Shown here piece by piece: positions 19,083 through 54,282 of a DNA stretch of 58,843 nucleotides (position 1 is its first letter; each line of letters starts with the position of its first letter). The position numbers and the translations under genes are program-made. Below the pieces are notes generated by a model. The model searched no databases, was not told the DNA's origin, and saw nothing but the letters and a program-made list of their open reading frames with translations. Source of the DNA: Candidatus Wolfebacteria bacterium (GTDB taxonomy: Bacteria; Patescibacteriota; Minisyncoccia; Phycocordibacterales; EsbW-18); assembly GCA_022616195.1 (NCBI GenBank), contig JAKEFG010000001.1, forward strand, positions 1 to 58,843, read 5' to 3'.

Positions 19083-19493
19083 TTACTTTTGTTCATTCGT
19101 TTGGTCGTGTACGTCCAAACTCCATGCTAAATCTTTTAGTTTGCTATCTGAGAGTTTGGGAACGTAGAGCGCATCTTGTGTCGCCGCCCCGACCTTGCCC
19201 GCGTCTGGTTTTTTGGGTTCTTTCTTCCAAATGTAGAGACGGCTTGTAGTGAAATACTGGAAAAAAGCCGCGAGAACGTCAATGAACGGCTTGTTGTTGT
19301 ATTTATAAAATGCAAGCGCGATGGCAAGACCTGCGGCAACGGCCATCAAAGGAAGCGCGATGAGTACGGGCAGGAAGGTGTAGAGCAGGAACGCGAGTCC
19401 CGCGCCGCCAGCGAGATAAACGAATTGTTTGAAGGTCAGAGGACCGATGACCTTGTCCTCTACCTCAATAAATTGTGGCACCTGGAATCTCAT
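19083..19493 (-). CDS. PrgI-family (VirB3-like) membrane protein
   Basis: MRFQVPQFIEVEDKVIGPLTFKQF followed by two TM helices. Confidence 0.88.
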   Translation of the reverse strand: MRFQVPQFIEVEDKVIGPLTFKQFVYLAGGAGLAFLLYTFLPVLIALPLMAVAAGLAIALAFYKYNNKPFIDVLAAFFQYFTTSRLYIWKKEPKKPDAGKVGAATQDALYVPKLSDSKLKDLAWSLDVHDQTNEQK

Positions 19494-19522
19494 ACTTCGC
19501 ATGCGAAGTATGAGATTCCAGG
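19481..19522. repeat. Perfect 42-bp palindrome covering the prgI start codon
   Basis: CCTGGAATCTCATACTTCGCA|TGCGAAGTATGAGATTCCAGG. Confidence 0.9.
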
Positions 19523-19527
19523 AAGTT

Positions 19528-19954
19528 CAAATGTCAAATGACAAATGTTAAACGATGTGTTCATACCTCATGAATTCAACTTTGTATTAGAAATAATCGT
19601 TGAGAATATCTTAACAAACTCTTCTGCCTCTTGATAAAAATATCGACACTCTTGTTTCTTATCCTGATTGGCTCGAGCGATAACCCGCATCCAGTACATT
19701 GTTTCTTTCGCTTCCTTTCGAGAAATACCTATCTTGTGTACAAAATCCCTTTTTGATTCGGCGACATCGGCTTCCATATAGTTTGCTCCGATACTTGTTC
19801 CTGATTTTGTCGCTTGGTATACCAGCGGTCGGTTTATGGTATCCCGGGACAGTGTTTTCAAGAAAGTTATAAGATTCTCTGAGAATTGTGCTGTGCGTTC
19901 TGCCAAATCATATTCTTTCCCTGTGTGTTTTTGGATTTTGTCATTTGACATTTG
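19528..19954. repeat. 18-bp perfect inverted repeats (heptamer CAAATGW units) flanking four-helix-bundle gene 1
   Basis: CAAATGTCAAATGACAAA at 19528-19545; TTTGTCATTTGACATTTG at 19937-19954. Confidence 0.9.
19568..19951 (-). CDS. Four-helix-bundle protein (23S rRNA intervening-sequence protein family)
   Basis: DLAERT..Q..KSGTSIGANYMEA..AESKRDFVHKIGISRKEAKETMYW. Confidence 0.9.
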   Translation of the reverse strand: MSNDKIQKHTGKEYDLAERTAQFSENLITFLKTLSRDTINRPLVYQATKSGTSIGANYMEADVAESKRDFVHKIGISRKEAKETMYWMRVIARANQDKKQECRYFYQEAEEFVKIFSTIISNTKLNS

Positions 19955-29210: not shown

Positions 29211-29268
29211 TTAGGTATTGGGCTCTGGGCTCTAGCGGAAAAGCTAACGCCTAGTGCCTAGCGCCTAA
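29211..29268 (+). repeat. Gene-less inverted pair of CTAGYGC heptamer repeats
   Basis: TTAGGTATTGGGCTCTGGGCTCTAGC-GGAAAA-GCTAACGCCTAGTGCCTAGCGCCTAA. Confidence 0.75.
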
Positions 29269-29302
29269 TGGGCTAGGGGGTCTAGATAACCCGAGATAAC
29301 AG

Positions 29303-35841: not shown

Positions 35842-36804
35842 TTAGTAATAGATGGTTTTTGTCCGATGATAAGGTCTGTCGTCTGGGGATTTTGTCTGTC
35901 CGGCATGCCACAGGTAATTGTCGAGTCGTGCAGAGGTCAAGTCGGGATTGTTGGGAATCAGTTGTTGCTTCATTCTTTCTACTGCCCAGATAGTTGCCGC
36001 CCGTATCTCCACTTCTTCTCTTGAGCCAGCGTGGATTTCGACGAGCGAGTCAATTCTCTCTGCAAGAGCGGGTGCGTATGTAAGAATCCCGAACCTTCTC
36101 AATATCTGGGGGACCTTGTAGTCAGCAAAGGCGGTCAGCTTATCGTGATTTGTAAGTTCCCGCTGACTCTTTTTGCCAAGTCGGTAGTTAATCATATCGG
36201 TATTCAGCTGAGCTCTCTTGTGAAAGTCAACTCGCACTCCATCAAGGGTCGTGTGGTCGTCAAAAGAAGGAAAAAATCGCACTAAAAGATTTGTGAGCTC
36301 AACCGCGTCACCGTTCGCGGCATGAAATACATTGACGAGTTGCCCGTCGAAATGTTCCAAAAGCACCTTTCCCCCTTCATGAAGACAATTTACTCGTTCA
36401 TCCAACAGGGGAATTATTATGTTGCCTTTCAACACCTCCTCTAGTTGTTCTTGAGTCATCTCTGACAAATAGTTCGCGTCAAGAACAGGAATGTCGTTTC
36501 TCAAGGCATCTTCCAGTGCGAGAAAGAGTCCGCTGGCACCGTCAAACACTTCCCCGCGGATAGTGACTCGCCATTTTTCTTCGCCCCCTCCTGTCCAAAA
36601 GCAGAAATTGACACAATTAAAGAGACACACCAAACTGATTGATTTTTCTATGTCCCATTCCTGAAGTGTATCTCCCAGCCCCGAGCTCTCGAAATTTCTG
36701 GAAGAAAACGACTTGCAGAATTCCTCAACAGCATCGTCATCGATAAAGACGTGCTCGGAGGAGTTGACTATTTTCTGTGTGGAAGGAAGAACGTCTTGCA
36801 GCAT
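35842..36804 (-). CDS. Queuosine salvage glycosylase (DUF2419/Qng1 family)
   Basis: NFCFW, FHKRAQL, LTAFADYKVPQIL, EVEIRA, LDNYLW, PYHRTKTIYY. Confidence 0.9.
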   Translation of the reverse strand: MLQDVLPSTQKIVNSSEHVFIDDDAVEEFCKSFSSRNFESSGLGDTLQEWDIEKSISLVCLFNCVNFCFWTGGGEEKWRVTIRGEVFDGASGLFLALEDALRNDIPVLDANYLSEMTQEQLEEVLKGNIIIPLLDERVNCLHEGGKVLLEHFDGQLVNVFHAANGDAVELTNLLVRFFPSFDDHTTLDGVRVDFHKRAQLNTDMINYRLGKKSQRELTNHDKLTAFADYKVPQILRRFGILTYAPALAERIDSLVEIHAGSREEVEIRAATIWAVERMKQQLIPNNPDLTSARLDNYLWHAGQTKSPDDRPYHRTKTIYY

Positions 36805-36838
36805 GTGTTTTAGTCGGCTAGTGCCTAGAGCCTAGCAG

Positions 36839-38374
36839 CTACAAGCTGGTTAGTTGTTTTGGCCGGTACTGCAACGCCTCAAGGATGTGTGATTCGGAAA
36901 CATCGTCCGCACTCTCTAGGTCGGCAATCGTGCGCGCAAGTTTAATCACTTTGTGATACGCGCGGGCGGAGAGGTCCAGCTGTTTTGCCGACTGCTTGAG
37001 CACTTCCTCCACGTCGGGCGCGAGCGGCACAAATGTCTCCAGTTCTTTGACGCCCATATCGCTGTTGGTACGCACCGCGTCGTTCTCGCCGAACCGCGTC
37101 CTCTGCAGCTCGCGCGCACCGCGCACCCGTTCGCGTATTGAAACCGACGACTCGCCCTTCTTGTGTTTTTGCGAAAGTTTTTCGTGGCTCACGGCACCCA
37201 CGTCAAGCCAGAGATCAATGCGGTCAATAATGGGTCCTGAAAGTTTTCTGCGGTAGCGCTCAAGATTTGCCGGAGCGCACACGCAGGTTTTCCCCGTACC
37301 GAAGTTGCCGCACGGACACGGGTTCATCGCGGCAAGCAAAATAAAGTTTGCCGGAAATTGGGCGGAGCCGCGCGCGCGTGAAACGGAAACAACCCTGTCT
37401 TCAAGCGGCTGGCGGAGCGCTTCAAGCACCCGCCGTTCAAATTCCGGGAACTCGTCAAGAAACAAAACACCGCGGTGTGCGAGTGTGATCTCTCCGGGCT
37501 TGGGGACGGTGCTGCCGCCGACGAGCGAGATGTGGCTTGCGGTGTGGTGTGGACTGCGCAGGGGCGGGTGTGTCACGAGGTCGTCGCGCAAGGCACCCGC
37601 GACCGAGTGAATGCCGGTTACCTCAAGTACTTCGTCAAAGGAGAGGGGCGGCAGAATTCCCGTGAACGCTTTGGCAAGCATGGTTTTGCCTGTTCCCGGC
37701 GGGCCGTACATCGCAACGTTGTGCCCGCCCGCGGCGGCGATTTCTAGCCCGCGTTTCGCCGTTTCCTGCCCGCGCACGTCGGCAAAATCAATCACGTAGA
37801 GGGGCTCGCGGTACTCTACAATCGTCTGCGGATGTGGCGAGAGAAACGTGTTGGTCTTTTGATTTAAGTGGTCAATGATGTCGGAGAGCGAATCGGCGGC
37901 GAATACCGCAACGCCGTCAATAAGCGCCGCCTCGCGCGCGTTTGCCTCGGGTACGAAAATATCGGTGAAGCCGCGCCGCTTCGCCTCGCGCACGAGCGGC
38001 AGGACGCCGCGAAGCGGACGCAGCTCGCCGTCAAGCGACAGTTCCCCGAGAAAAAGTTTCTTCTCGGGGTTGAATTGCATATCGCCCGCCGCGAGAAGGT
38101 ACGCAAGCGCAATCCCAAGGTCAAAGTTCGCACCCTCTTTTTTGAGGTCGGCGGGCGCAAGCGAGATGACGATTTTCTGGTTCTTTTCTTTTGGCGACTT
38201 CAAGCCGGAGTTCTTGATAGCGGCGGCGAAGCGGTCGCGCGCCTCCTCCACCGCTTTGTCGGGAAGCCCCACAATGGAGAACGCATGAAGCCCGCGCGCG
38301 AGGTCGGCTTCAATGACGATGATGTGCGCGTCAAGCATTGACGTCTGCGCACTGTACACTTTTGCAAATGCCAT
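36839..38374 (-). CDS. comM: ComM/YifB Mg-chelatase-like AAA+ ATPase
   Basis: IVGLPDKAVEEAR, GELSLDG, GPPGTGKTMLA, PGEITLAHRGVLFLDE, AAMNPCPCG, ARTIADL. Confidence 0.95.
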   Translation of the reverse strand: MAFAKVYSAQTSMLDAHIIVIEADLARGLHAFSIVGLPDKAVEEARDRFAAAIKNSGLKSPKEKNQKIVISLAPADLKKEGANFDLGIALAYLLAAGDMQFNPEKKLFLGELSLDGELRPLRGVLPLVREAKRRGFTDIFVPEANAREAALIDGVAVFAADSLSDIIDHLNQKTNTFLSPHPQTIVEYREPLYVIDFADVRGQETAKRGLEIAAAGGHNVAMYGPPGTGKTMLAKAFTGILPPLSFDEVLEVTGIHSVAGALRDDLVTHPPLRSPHHTASHISLVGGSTVPKPGEITLAHRGVLFLDEFPEFERRVLEALRQPLEDRVVSVSRARGSAQFPANFILLAAMNPCPCGNFGTGKTCVCAPANLERYRRKLSGPIIDRIDLWLDVGAVSHEKLSQKHKKGESSVSIRERVRGARELQRTRFGENDAVRTNSDMGVKELETFVPLAPDVEEVLKQSAKQLDLSARAYHKVIKLARTIADLESADDVSESHILEALQYRPKQLTSL

Positions 38375-38377
38375 AGT

Positions 38378-38781
38378 CTAGGCGCTAGCGATTAGGCGCT
38401 AGGCTCTAGCTTGGTAATAAAGACATTGAGCACTTTCATAATCTCTCCCAACAATATTTCAATACGAGAATAATCGAGTAATTTGGTTTCATGAAGGCGC
38501 TTGGCAATTTCAATTTGGGTCTCAAGTTCTCCGCCCGAGCCGGACGCAATAAGCAGAAACTGTTTCATCTGCTGATTGCTCCCGCGCAGTTTTCCTTCAG
38601 CTATGTTTGATGGAATGGAAACAGCCGCGCGGCGCATCTGTGAAGTCAGACCGTAGATCTCTTCTTTCGGGAATTTTCTTGTTACAATGTAGACCTCTTC
38701 TACAAGCTCTACGGATTTTTGCCAAACAGTCAGGTCACGATAGGTTTTCATAGCTAGCGCCTAATGCCTAGTGCCTAATGG
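38378..38781. repeat. Inverted heptamer (CTAGYGC) repeat arrays flanking four-helix-bundle gene 2
   Basis: CTAGGCGCTAGCGATTAGGCGCTAGGCTCTAGC at 38378-38410 versus GCTAGCGCCTAATGCCTAGTGCCTAATGG at 38753-38781; third array at 36818-36836. Confidence 0.85.
38392..38751 (-). CDS. Four-helix-bundle protein (23S rRNA IVS protein family)
   Basis: YRDLTVWQKS..FPKEEIYGLTSQMRRAAVSIPSNIAEG..IASGSGGELETQ. Confidence 0.95.
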   Translation of the reverse strand: MKTYRDLTVWQKSVELVEEVYIVTRKFPKEEIYGLTSQMRRAAVSIPSNIAEGKLRGSNQQMKQFLLIASGSGGELETQIEIAKRLHETKLLDYSRIEILLGEIMKVLNVFITKLEPSA

Positions 38782-38786
38782 CTGGT

Positions 38787-39191
38787 TCACTCCGGGCGGA
38801 GCGAGTCGGCGTGCGTGACGCATGTCAGCGCTGCGGGATTTGCTTCAAGACGTTTTACGTCGATCGCTTCTCCACCAACCTCACACGTACCGTAGGTGCC
38901 GTCTTCAATTTTCTTGAGTGCGCGTTTCACATTGTTGTAGCGGATTTCTAGCTCGCGCAGAACTGCGGTGTTCTCCTCATACTCTTCAATCGCATCCGCC
39001 GCTTCATTCTTATCCGCCTGCATCACATCAATGTTTTCGGGCACCGGCTCCCAGTCCCCGGGGTTGCTCGGATTGATGCGTCCCACGGTCTTGAGTTCAC
39101 CCAAAAGCTTCTGCTCTTCGGCGAGCAGTCTTTCTTTGAAATTATTCAGCTGTTCTGGTGAGAGGTCGCCCATAGTTGTTGCGGTGTCCAT
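38787..39191 (-). CDS. TraR/DksA-family protein
   Basis: ADKNEAAD coiled-coil tip; RALKKIEDGTYGTCEVGGEAIDVKRLEANPAALTC. Confidence 0.88.
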   Translation of the reverse strand: MDTATTMGDLSPEQLNNFKERLLAEEQKLLGELKTVGRINPSNPGDWEPVPENIDVMQADKNEAADAIEEYEENTAVLRELEIRYNNVKRALKKIEDGTYGTCEVGGEAIDVKRLEANPAALTCVTHADSLRPE

Positions 39192-39197
39192 GGTACC

Positions 39198-39235
39198 AGA
39201 AAAGCCGCGCGGGCAATAGCCCGCGCGGCTTTTCT
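39198..39235. terminator. Bidirectional terminator hairpin
   Basis: AGAAAAGCCGCGCGGGC-AATA-GCCCGCGCGGCTTTTCT. Confidence 0.85.
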
Positions 39236-39275
39236 TGAGATACCTCTCTCTGAACGCGCTACGCAGGTAGTGAAT

Positions 39276-39377
39276 TCAATCGTGGAGACGCCGCAGGGGG
39301 TGGAGCGGGGCAATGCCCGCCCGTTCGTCGAGCGTTCCTCGGGCGAGGAGTCGCCCGAGAGTAAGGGTGATGTTCAT
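39276..39377 (-). CDS. Candidate 33-aa peptide
   Basis: MNITLTLGRLLARGTLDERAGIAPLHPLRRLHD*, preceded by purine-rich GAAAGAGAGGGGAAGG and followed by a terminator. Confidence 0.35.
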   Translation of the reverse strand: MNITLTLGRLLARGTLDERAGIAPLHPLRRLHD

Positions 39378-39658
39378 CCTTCCCCTCTCTTTCTTTTTTG
39401 GGTGGATTCCCAATTCCAAAGCGGTCTTTCATCCACCCCCGAAATCAACCGGTTGCGCATACCAGCTGATTCCGAGGGTGGAATGTACTGTTGAGAATAT
39501 TGCAAAGAACTTCTCTCCGACTCCCCGACCGCGTTGCGGTCAGGAAGTCGGAAGAAGTGCCGTCCGTCGCGTATCCAACGCGGAGACAGCACAGGGTGAA
39601 GCGGGGGCACTCCCGCTTCGGGTGAAAAGAACTCAGCACAGTGCCGTGCGGTGGTGGG

Positions 39659-40180
39659 TCAGGCGGGCTGTGGTGGGAGACGAAGTGCCCCCCGCAGGAC
39701 CGTCTCGCCCGCGAATCCGCGGGCGCCCTCCTCATGGACGGCGGCGTACACATACCCGCCGTCCTCCCAGAGGAGCTCGATGTGGCCGTCGGCCCCGATG
39801 GGGCCGAAGAGCTCCTCGGCGCCGCCGAGGAGCTCAGGGTCGTGCTCGGTGAAATCCTCGTTGAGGTCACCGAGCCGCCGGGCGGCGGCGGTCATGTCCT
39901 CGACAGTCCCCGCCAGGTCGTCGAGGTTGATGTCCGCCCACGCCGCCGGCACCTCCCAGCGCTGCCACGACGTGCCCTCGTCGTGGCTCTGGTGGGAGCA
40001 GGTGTCGCTGTGACACCACTCCTCCCACCGGCTTCCGAGATAGCGCCCGCCCGCGGCGGCGAGCGCCTGCTGCAGCTTCGAGGTGGGGTTTTCCACCTCG
40101 ATGACCTCGACCCCGCGCTCGGCGCGGTCGAGGCGGATTGCGGCGGCGAGCGCCTGGAGGGCGCTCTGGATCCTGTTCAT
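39659..40180 (-). CDS. GC-rich acidic orphan protein
   Basis: 173 aa, GAAAGGT SD, strong GC3 bias unlike its neighbours. Confidence 0.7.
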   Translation of the reverse strand: MNRIQSALQALAAAIRLDRAERGVEVIEVENPTSKLQQALAAAGGRYLGSRWEEWCHSDTCSHQSHDEGTSWQRWEVPAAWADINLDDLAGTVEDMTAAARRLGDLNEDFTEHDPELLGGAEELFGPIGADGHIELLWEDGGYVYAAVHEEGARGFAGETVLRGALRLPPQPA

Positions 40181-53644: not shown

Positions 53645-53762
53645 ACGAGGGATTTTTGTTTGTGTCCTTTTAATAATCCCCAAACTATGGGAACAAAGCG
53701 ACAAAAACACAAAATATTGGGGATAACTCTGTGAGTATGTGTAAAAGACATGTCCGTTAGAA

Positions 53763-53804
53763 ACTAAAAACTAAGGACTAAAAACTAAGGACTAAAAACT
53801 TAAA
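53763..53804 (+). repeat. Six tandem heptamers, ACTAAAA/ACTAAGG
   Basis: ACTAAAA ACTAAGG ACTAAAA ACTAAGG ACTAAAA ACTTAAA. Confidence 0.85.
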
Positions 53805-53874
53805 ACACTCTTACACAGAGCCATATTTGTCAAAAAGACGTCCTTTATGTGTTAATTGTTTCATGTGAAACGTT

Positions 53875-54282
53875 ATGAGGACTGAAAAGAGGTTTATCGG
53901 AGACATTGGGGAGGAGGTTGCCTGTCGGTTTCTCAAGAAAAAAGGGTATAACATCATTGAGCGGAACTATCTCAAAAAATGGGGTGAGATTGACATTATT
54001 GCACGCAAGTCGGGCGAACTACACTTTGTTGAGGTAAAAACGGTGCAGTCAAAAGTTGAAAGTTCAAAGTCCAAGAATGTTTCACAGGAAACGGAAGGGT
54101 ACCGCCCGGAGGAAAACGTGCACCCGGCAAAGCTCAAGCGTCTCGCCCGAACCGTGGAGACCTATCTATTGGACAAAGGCGTATCGGACAGTGTGCCGTG
54201 GCAAATTGATGTGGTAACTGTTCTCTTGGATCTAAAGGACAAAAAGGCGAAGGTGGATATGCTTGAAAATGTTATTTTGTGA
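53875..54282 (+). CDS. yraN: YraN (UPF0102) endonuclease-like protein
   Basis: GDIGEEVA..GYNIIERN..GEIDIIA..HFVEVKT. Confidence 0.92.
   Translation: MRTEKRFIGDIGEEVACRFLKKKGYNIIERNYLKKWGEIDIIARKSGELHFVEVKTVQSKVESSKSKNVSQETEGYRPEENVHPAKLKRLARTVETYLLDKGVSDSVPWQIDVVTVLLDLKDKKAKVDMLENVIL

Follow-up and report, generated by a model that had tools for sequence, protein, structure and literature searches.

A four-helix-bundle protein gene with inverted heptamer-array ends between dksA and comM in a Candidatus Wolfebacteria genome

The stretch of Candidatus Wolfebacteria DNA studied here (58,843 nucleotides, hereafter the window; contig C22 of a 24-contig genome of 631 kb, coded G000 and rated 98% complete) carries, between a dksA/traR-type gene and comM, a cassette formed by a gene for a four-helix-bundle (4HB) protein and two arrays of tandem heptamers in inverted orientation at its ends. 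The closest described system is the intervening sequence (IVS) of a 23S rRNA, an element of 428 nt whose 28-bp terminal stem carries the frame of the protein S23p in its loop (PMC4990558). Both a recombinant RNase III and that of E. coli cut this IVS halfway along its stem in vitro. In addition, three tandem GACAGAT units, whose copy number varies among strains, precede the S23p ATG, and the 5' cut falls at the first of them (PMC4990558). Leptospira and Brucella are also named in that paper, and the solved structure 2GSC is given there as a pentamer of four-helix bundles. In the accessible part of its text, the heptamers are treated as local to one IVS and not as a trait of the protein family.

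Tandem heptamers have also been described as dispersed repeats: GGGAATC in Xanthomonas and GGGGAYT in Nostoc, heptanucleotide repeats of Calothrix being also cited (PMC4692102), and TAACTGA in Beggiatoaceae, cyanobacteria and Bacteroidetes (PMC4679880). X. campestris has 186 GGGAATC arrays of unknown function, 89% of them intergenic and 70 arranged as convergent pairs (PMC4692102), and the role of such repeats is worded as a "function to be elucidated" (PMC4692102, PMC4679880). A link to PF05635, the family of the window protein, is absent from the accessible text of both papers, since PMC4692102 contains there neither S23, "intervening" nor "helix bundle", and PMC4679880 neither S23, "intervening sequence" nor "four helix". 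Elsewhere, "four helix bundle protein" is merely an entry in gene tables (PMC8700078, PMC8491059). The S23p-bearing IVS with its terminal repeats, the heptamers of one IVS, the dispersed heptamers of several phyla and the 4HB fold are all, then, already known. Searches of open-access papers gave none on PF05635 genes being generally bracketed by inverted heptamer arrays, on the heptamer following the lineage of the 4HB protein, or on dispersed heptamer arrays co-occurring with PF05635 genes. PF05635/TIGR02436 is a very widespread family of small proteins for which we know of no function outside that of Avd in retroelements. A comparable layout is that of the REP sequences with RAYT transposases (REPINs), in which a gene is flanked by inverted copies of a dispersed short repeat.

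The dksA-4HB-comM locus

The dksA/traR, 4HB, comM and queuosine-salvage genes are all encoded on the minus strand with short spacers between them, and three arrays are placed among them, as follows:

38787 to 39191, minus strand: dksA/traR-type zinc-finger protein gene, upstream neighbour of the cassette (Pfam PF01258, E 9e-07, 29.2 bits against a cut-off of 24.9)
38753 to 38781: upstream arm, about four degenerate heptamers (on the minus strand CATTAGG, CACTAGG, CATTAGG and CGCTAGC), ending 1 nt short of the 4HB ATG
38392 to 38751, minus strand: 4HB gene, 119 amino acids, 23S rRNA intervening-sequence protein family (PF05635, TIGR02436, PDB 2GSC)
38378 to 38410: downstream (middle) arm, about five heptamers, holding the 4HB stop codon, with 3 nt from its end to the comM ATG
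36839 to 38374, minus strand: comM-type Mg-chelatase/AAA ATPase gene, downstream neighbour (PF01078, E 4.6e-88; PF13541, E 3.4e-39; PF13335, E 5.9e-29)
36817 to 36838: third, gene-less array of the same heptamer family, within the 34-nt spacer from the comM stop to the queuosine-salvage ATG
35842 to 36804, minus strand: queuosine salvage protein gene, next co-directional gene (PF10343, E 9e-74)

The three arrays and two exact 12-mers within them had been pointed out by the first-pass annotation, and the sequence, Tandem Repeats Finder and a search for repeat pairs agreed on their presence and places. Tandem Repeats Finder gave two arrays of period 7, one with 4.6 copies at 38378-38409 and the other with 3.4 copies at 38754-38777. 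The 12-mer ATTAGGCGCTAG occupies 38391-38402 and has its exact reverse complement at 38754-38765, while GCTAGGCTCTAG occupies 38398-38409 and has its reverse complement at 36825-36836. That the first two arrays are inverted arms around the 4HB gene was confirmed by an inverted pair of 24 nt (38379-38402 and 38754-38777), 88% complementary and 351 nt apart. The same repeat search found a second inverted pair, 36825-36841 and 38393-38409 (17 nt, 88% complementary), as well as a direct repeat, 36817-36851 and 38753-38787 (35 nt, 74%), which means that the third array is oriented like the upstream arm of the 4HB gene. The pattern YTARNNNYTARNNNYTAR matched the window 12 times against 0.10 expected, and none of 100 shuffles reached 12. 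All three arrays are genuine, and chance falls far short of accounting for them. In many 4HB genes the downstream array itself codes for the final residues and the stop. Here, at 38392-38410, the protein ends ...EPSA* from GAGCCTAGCGCCTAA, and, as its last codons and stop lie within the array, it is the array that supplies the stop.

The 4HB protein matched PF05635 with an E value of 1.1e-34 and 119.2 bits (cut-off 33.8) over positions 1-105 of 106, and TIGR02436, "four helix bundle protein", with 114.5 bits (cut-off 24); its solved relative is PDB 2GSC (E 9.1e-24). Four columns are invariant in an alignment of 43 sequences (Q38, N49, E52 and E75 in the numbering of the window protein). Judged by these matches, the window gene is an intact member of PF05635/TIGR02436.

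The dksA loci of 29 relatives were taken for comparing the junction with comM. In 24 of them comM lies within 250 nt of dksA, with a spacer of 1-9 nt in eight; in two the gap is about 0.9-1.1 kb and in the remaining three comM is not within the locus. No match to the window 4HB protein was obtained in these 29 loci by tblastn (E≤1e-5). By this comparison of junctions, the cassette is an insertion into a conserved and otherwise tight dksA-comM junction. Gene-less heptamer arrays stand directly past the dksA stop in several relatives, as single arrays in L052, L061 and L063, and in L038 (genome G019) the 88-nt spacer at the dksA site consists of two inverted gene-less arrays. Inspection by eye showed target-site duplications neither at the dksA-comM site nor at the trxB site. 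In four DNA runs there were no joints indicating presence or absence of the cassette; run X1 is probably the source of the assembly, X2 contains a relative, and X3 and X4 hardly contain the organism. At 36836-36838, the X2 relative, from a groundwater run, has, just past its comM stop, 32 extra letters that make up a hairpin-like word, and beyond them 31 letters of its contig match the array side of the window (joint 36836/36838).

Heptamer arms and dispersed arrays in the PF05635 family

The genome encodes five PF05635 genes, each with inverted arrays of a different heptamer, and matches to this family were present in 21 of 40 relatives (22 of 41 genomes including this one). The arms were evaluated with an inverted-repeat (IR) score, defined as the highest complementarity, without gaps, of the 100 nt preceding the start to the 100 nt that follow the stop, with a threshold of 10. 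This threshold was reached by 48 of the 57 4HB genes of this genome and the 40 relatives, against 4 of 72 other genes at the same loci. A further 80 loci, 78 of them scorable, were obtained by a pattern search of species genomes with a closer 16-sequence alignment; they come from Patescibacteria, Bacteroidota, Clostridia, Proteobacteria, Acidobacteriota, Actinomycetota and others, and include Bosea, Thiohalocapsa, Flavobacterium, Collinsella and Clostridia. Across these many phyla, 63 of 78 4HB genes scored at least 10, against 2 of 85 controls, and strong lag-7 periodicity in both arms was found in 42 of 78, against 3 of 85. L089 and L090, two weak PF05635 matches beside reverse transcriptases that served as an internal negative control, had an IR score of 8, under the arm threshold. 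The window's other 4HB gene, upstream of prgI and called here the first cassette, is below the threshold only through the choice of its start codon, an exact 18-nt inverted repeat being present. Furthermore, L023 of relative G033 is a 4HB cassette with CTGGAAN arms located within a bacterial 16S rRNA gene (L023:1366-2853, small-subunit rRNA match of 549 bits). On sequence grounds, L023 shows one type of element both in rRNA and between protein genes.

Two general rules for the arms were considered and rejected. The arrays cannot be six-frame stop signals in general, as GGGAACA, CTGGAAA, GTATGTG and other units are stop-free, though many units hold TAG or TAA. Neither are upstream arms always G-rich and downstream arms always C-rich, since deeper clades have the opposite polarity. 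Four cassettes (L015, L016, L017 and L012), three of them trxB-linked, share a conserved promoter-like motif (TTTAGATTTATTTGAAC, then a TAnnnT box), which follows the upstream arm and precedes the 4HB ATG by about 45 nt, and variants of it are present in L020, L027 and L031. These four cassettes may bring their own promoter.

In a tree of the 57 4HB proteins the heptamer types clustered by clade. To quantify this, the consensus units of 62 cassettes with clear arms were compared, counting as close those pairs that differed by at most one base. Such pairs made up 33% at a protein identity of 55-70%, 6% at 45-55%, 2% at 35-45% and 0.8% below 35%, the value for random units being 0.9%. As neutral DNA is saturated at such divergences, it would be the heptamer sequence itself that is constrained, and not the pairing alone. 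The nearest relatives of the window protein, L151 and L152 (about 60% identity), have the same CTAGGCA unit but are upstream of prgI, and TTAGTGG is common to 4HB cassettes of the gammaproteobacterium Thiohalocapsa and of Ruminococcus whose proteins are 56% identical. The cassette is a unit, its gene and arms being found together at distinct loci and in distinct phyla, and the constancy of the heptamer within a protein clade indicates that it also moves as one. Judged by these alignments, the heptamer is conserved with the protein lineage, and the correlation between heptamer type and 4HB phylogeny that the first-pass annotation had predicted is thus borne out (33 against 0.8% close pairs). 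Its related claim that each 4HB gene has a heptamer of its own was right in that the five copies of the genome all differ. However, the CTAG type is not private to its cassette, being the commonest type of dispersed array.

Dispersed period-7 arrays were defined by at least three units, at least 85% lag-7 identity and not being of low complexity, and were counted in the whole of G000 and in parts of 12 other genomes. Among genomes in which a 4HB gene was found, there were 20 arrays in 631 kb in G000, 12 in 200 kb in G003, 23 in 200 kb in G019, 18 in 100 kb in both G010 and G009, 6 in 100 kb in G004 and 4 in 100 kb in G007. Where no 4HB gene was found, the counts were 1 in 200 kb in G017 and G026, 1 in 100 kb in G001 and G032, 0 in 100 kb in G006 and 4 in 53 kb in G005, whose sampled part likewise holds no 4HB gene. 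Arrays were, therefore, dense in 7/7 genomes with 4HB genes and sparse in 5/6 without them. G001, G005 and G006 belong to the same genus (g2) as G003, G004, G007, G009 and G010. The excess is specific to this period, as G000 had 20 arrays of period 7 against 1, 1, 0 and 0 for periods 8-11, and periods 8-10 gave 0-2 arrays in every sample. In agreement with this, runs of at least three TAG or TAA triplets at spacing 7 numbered 41 genome-wide, against 1-8 for each of the spacings 4-6 and 8-12, and only 2 of the 41 fell within a crude gene map extending over 88% of the genome, the other 39 being outside it. The CTAG(G/C)NN type, which is that of the dksA-comM cassette, accounts for about 30 dispersed arrays in these 631 kb.

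At least two 7-mers were shared with an arm of a resident cassette by 33 of 80 gene-less arrays from five genomes, and the pairwise rate of 7-mer sharing was 8.9% for resident against 2.2% for non-resident cassettes. Gene-less arrays also occur as inverted pairs (C6:12919-12986, C21:31583-31624 and C5:58587-58651 in G000). Finally, GGGAATC arrays were located in species genomes and four of these genomes were searched for PF05635. That of X. arboricola (G041) has a single PF05635 gene, closely upstream of an accC-like gene and flanked by inverted GGGAATC-type arrays, and contains 169 matches to GGGAATCGGGAATC, a pair of tandem units, whereas the reversed control gave 0. In a separate set, four Moorena 4HB genes have inverted heptamer arms. 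Gene-less arrays and hairpins of cassette heptamers are scattered in the intergenic DNA, mainly of genomes that carry 4HB genes.

These arrays resemble the published dispersed heptamer repeats in consisting of two to many tandem 7-mers, about 90% intergenic, on both strands and often near gene ends, and the window's genome also has the multi-copy excess over other periods; the difference is the direct link found here, in which GGGAATC arrays stand on both sides of the sole PF05635 gene in a Xanthomonas. REP sequences with RAYT transposases are alike in that the inverted flanking repeat is also dispersed between genes of the same genome (as here and in Xanthomonas), in that the repeat type follows the gene lineage and in the gene-less hairpin doublets. 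In contrast, the window gene encodes a 119-amino-acid four-helix bundle, which is not known to have a catalytic fold, and not an HUH/Y1 transposase (only PF05635 and bAvd matched), the repeat is a tandem 7-mer array instead of one palindrome, and no mobility chemistry is known or was found. The resemblance is one of layout and not of membership.

Proposed processing of the cassette and competing explanations

The explanation that we favour, with moderate confidence, is that the locus holds a cassette of the IVS type, that is, a 4HB gene with ends of inverted YTAGSSN heptamer arrays, whose transcript RNase III probably cuts. Across the four genes, promoter-like sites and terminator-like sites of the minus strand were both absent, and dksA, 4HB and comM may perhaps be read as one transcript. 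On such a transcript the arms would pair into a stem of about 30 bp enclosing the 4HB frame, and RNase III would cut this stem as it does in the 4HB-bearing IVS of one 23S rRNA. Cleavage is proposed because RNase III is encoded in the window's genome, the arms are predicted to pair and the published IVS provides a precedent. The minimum-free-energy and centroid structures both close the 4HB frame with the two arrays, placing the comM AUG at the base of the stem, and the duplex of the two arms has an energy of -42.6 kcal/mol, against -14.8 +/- 3.5 kcal/mol with a shuffled arm. As the 3' arm contains both the 4HB stop and the start of comM, translation of comM would probably depend on the cut of the stem, or else on ribosomes that complete the 4HB frame within the arm.

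At the same time, the arms would be terminal inverted repeats of a lineage-specific recognition word rather than a stem kept solely for RNA pairing. This word would probably be read by the 4HB protein itself, which is the obvious candidate because its lineage predicts the word.

The cassette and the S23p-bearing 23S rRNA IVS (PMC4990558) have in common the protein family encoded in the loop, a stem of about 28-30 bp made by terminal inverted repeats, tandem heptamers in the 5' arm before the start and a host that encodes RNase III, and in one relative a cassette (L023) is likewise situated within rRNA, in a 16S gene. They differ in that the window cassette is located between protein genes of one putative transcription unit, with no Rfam match in 36000-40000, and in that it has heptamer arrays in both arms, the downstream one holding the 4HB stop and abutting the start of the next gene. 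In addition, the RNase III cut was seen in vitro for the IVS, whereas here it is predicted from sequence.

Several observations weigh against this explanation. The fold of the whole region is just modestly better than those of shuffles (z -2.5). Mismatches between arms have no sense-strand wobble bias (105 G.U against 119 A.C in 112 cassettes, p 0.39), and RNA pairing is therefore apparently not what keeps the arms alike. Clear arms are lacking in 9/57 and 15/78 cassettes. At the trxB site of genus g2 the cassette replaces a terminator hairpin and a promoter-like element of the empty genomes, so that this is not a clean insertion; the filled genomes have the arms and, within the cassette, a conserved motif resembling a promoter. 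Neither a transposase, a target-site duplication nor any other mobility mechanism was found. The 13 compared genomes are few and mutually related, so the co-occurrence of arrays and 4HB genes is a contrast whose statistic is not phylogenetically corrected. G005, which is 98% complete and in which no PF05635 match was found, has its four arrays in 53 kb all at gene boundaries (L371, L373); they may be relics after loss of the 4HB gene. Of the 80 gene-less arrays mentioned above, 47 match no resident cassette. Finally, the Moorena genome is rich in GGGAATC arrays but none of its examined 4HB genes has GGGAATC arms, and thus the match between arms and dispersed arrays is frequent, not complete.

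A wider proposal can be put forward only tentatively: PF05635 proteins would be the trans-acting partners of the dispersed heptamers, each lineage reading its own 7-mer, with the armed gene as a master copy, the gene-less arrays and hairpins as its non-autonomous offspring, and the rRNA IVSs as cassettes that landed in rRNA and were made harmless by RNase III. Its layout parallels that of REP sequences and RAYT transposases, although the chemistry would differ. If true, it would explain the heptamer excess (the GGGAATC of Xanthomonas, the cyanobacterial repeats and the TAACTGA of Beggiatoa) and give a role to a very common protein family. PF05635 becomes in any case a concrete candidate partner for the heptamer repeats, and the heptamer a concrete candidate ligand for the protein. 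The rRNA intervening sequences would be recast as one landing site of a general cassette, and cassettes inside operons (before comM, prgI, trxB and rplN) may shape the RNA processing and translation of their neighbours.

We consider it unlikely that, instead, the arrays constitute a cognate regulon, in which a ring-shaped 4HB oligomer would bind its own tandem heptamers, the arrays at gene boundaries being targets, the arms of its own gene serving for autoregulation, and the spread having been selected for regulation. A ring that binds spaced triplets is known in TRAP, which provides an analogy. The pentamer of four-helix bundles reported for 2GSC (PMC4990558) would fit this model, as would the heptamer identity kept where neutral DNA is saturated, the lack of wobble bias, by which sequence rather than pairing seems to be conserved, the position of arrays abutting start and stop codons (often within 3-17 nt), their rarity where no 4HB gene was found and the 15 of 114 cassettes that precede PrgI genes. 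However, relative to transcription the arrays occur in both strand orientations, and some are placed between convergent genes, which fits a regulator acting on RNA poorly, and the neighbours, with 135 Pfam families, have no common function. The 47 arrays without a matching resident 4HB gene, and G005 with arrays but no detectable gene, are also difficult to reconcile with it.

A target preference without any functional tie is rather improbable. Arrays and hairpins would arise by replication slippage, and 4HB genes would insert, or survive, in the hairpin loops. Gene-less inverted array pairs do exist (the three of G000 and L038 in G019), and so do the arrays of G005; rRNA IVSs are found at helix tips (PMC4990558), and an excess of heptamers among bacterial simple repeats has been reported together with a slippage hypothesis (PMC4692102). 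Nevertheless, the same clade with the same heptamer recurs at different loci and in different phyla, and therefore either gene and arms move together or the protein chooses the heptamer. Moreover, the array density within genus g2 is in step with the presence of 4HB genes in 4 of 5 sampled genomes (G001 and G006 against G003, G009 and G010), which makes a lineage-wide slippage bias insufficient, and arrays of periods 8-10 are absent everywhere.

The first-pass annotation had also suggested a switch, in which the middle array would pair with either the upstream arm or the array past comM and this choice would set comM expression. This was not supported and we regard it as very improbable. It is true that the middle array covers the comM start region and is complementary to both others, with duplex energies of -42.6 kcal/mol for the upstream arm and -32.5 kcal/mol for the third array, against -14.8 +/- 3.5 kcal/mol when the third array was shuffled, and that the X2 relative seems to keep an array-like sequence after comM (the 31 letters matching at 36836/36838). 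However, the third array is at a distance of 1.5 kb downstream, transcription reaches the nearer and stronger partner before it, and of 23 other arrays of this family, which has about 30 members genome-wide, 22 equal or surpass it in their pairing with the middle array. Gene-less arrays occur in all gene configurations (22 in co-directional spacers, 11 of G-type and 9 of C-type, 9 between convergent and 7 between divergent genes) without strand bias. The second partner being unspecific, and the three-array layout being found in none of the 29 dksA-comM junctions of relatives, the alternative pairing of a riboswitch or attenuator is not recognized here. The third array is a scattered copy of the family and not a dedicated partner.

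Lastly, it is hardly credible that the window 4HB protein is the Avd accessory protein of a diversity-generating retroelement with repeats nearby by chance: it matches PF22296 (bAvd, E 3.9e-05) and NF033474 (Avd, E 1.1e-4) and the genome encodes one reverse transcriptase, but both scores are under the curated cut-offs (24.5 bits against 40 and 22.5 against 80), this sole reverse transcriptase is on contig C20 with an Avd-like frame of its own and none adjoins the window 4HB gene, and cassettes and arrays are present without reverse transcriptase in G003, G004 and G010, whereas in G017 there is a reverse transcriptase but no 4HB gene, and 200 kb hold 1 array. From the same four genomes, in which cassettes occur without the enzyme and the enzyme without cassettes, a dependence of the cassettes on reverse transcriptase was rejected. 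The likeness to Avd is that of a homologous four-helix-bundle fold, as PF05635 resembles Avd (PMC10053308); the window gene differs in having no adjacent reverse transcriptase, while L089 and L090, which do adjoin one, lack heptamer arms. At C20:2550-3870 of G000, a reverse transcriptase frame (340 amino acids, PF00078, E 6e-15) stands beside a divergent Avd-like four-helix frame (C20:3505-3870); the two probably make up a diversity-generating retroelement that has nothing to do with the heptamer cassettes.

Neighbouring genes and further arrays of the window

The genes next to the cassettes were tallied for 135 cassettes, of which 114 are followed, at no more than 250 nt, by a gene on the same strand. 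The commonest of these neighbours was PrgI (15/114), followed by trxB-like oxidoreductases (6) and M50 peptidases (5), and 135 Pfam families were hit in all. The association with DNA-transfer genes claimed by the first-pass annotation is thus upheld for prgI but not for comM, which was met once. By their N-terminal motif, 13 of 127 4HB proteins are prgI-linked; since they are scattered over the tree and have different heptamers, the region upstream of prgI is a recurrent site in Patescibacteria, comM being a single case. Two other cassettes of the genome lie in core operons, L003 (C9:22597-22974) before a ribosomal protein L14-like gene and L002 (C9:29187-29543) before a methionine-aminopeptidase-like gene, both assigned by likeness of the N-terminus. 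In both, the downstream arm abuts the next start codon and no obvious ribosome-binding site is visible.

The first cassette and one more array of the CTAG family are located in the window as follows:

29244 to 29270: gene-less CTAG-family array between convergent M23/LysM peptidase and HAD hydrolase genes
19937 to 19954: CAAATGN heptamers of the first cassette's upstream arm, which overlaps the annotated start codon and forms an exact 18-nt inverted repeat with 19528-19545
19568 to 19951, minus strand: 4HB gene of the first cassette, directly upstream of prgI (PF05635, 52.7 bits; TIGR02436, 74.2 bits)
19525 to 19552: downstream arm of the first cassette, period-7 array and inverted repeat
19083 to 19502: prgI (PF12666, E 4.1e-12)

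Directly after this downstream arm there is a perfect palindrome of 42 nt without loop (19481-19522, 21 + 21 nt), whose right half is the very beginning of prgI, namely its start codon and the codons that follow (conserved N-terminus MRFQVPQF). The palindrome looks like an inverted duplication of the 5' end of prgI, and the start of this gene, being within it, would be locked in a hairpin. Finally, an array of AAACTAA-type heptamers (53757-53806, 6.6 copies), whose unit resembles the arms of the cassette at C9:22597, stands upstream of a UPF0102/NERD nuclease-like gene (53875-54282), and a second period-7 array, AAAGTTN (54047-54075), lies inside this gene.

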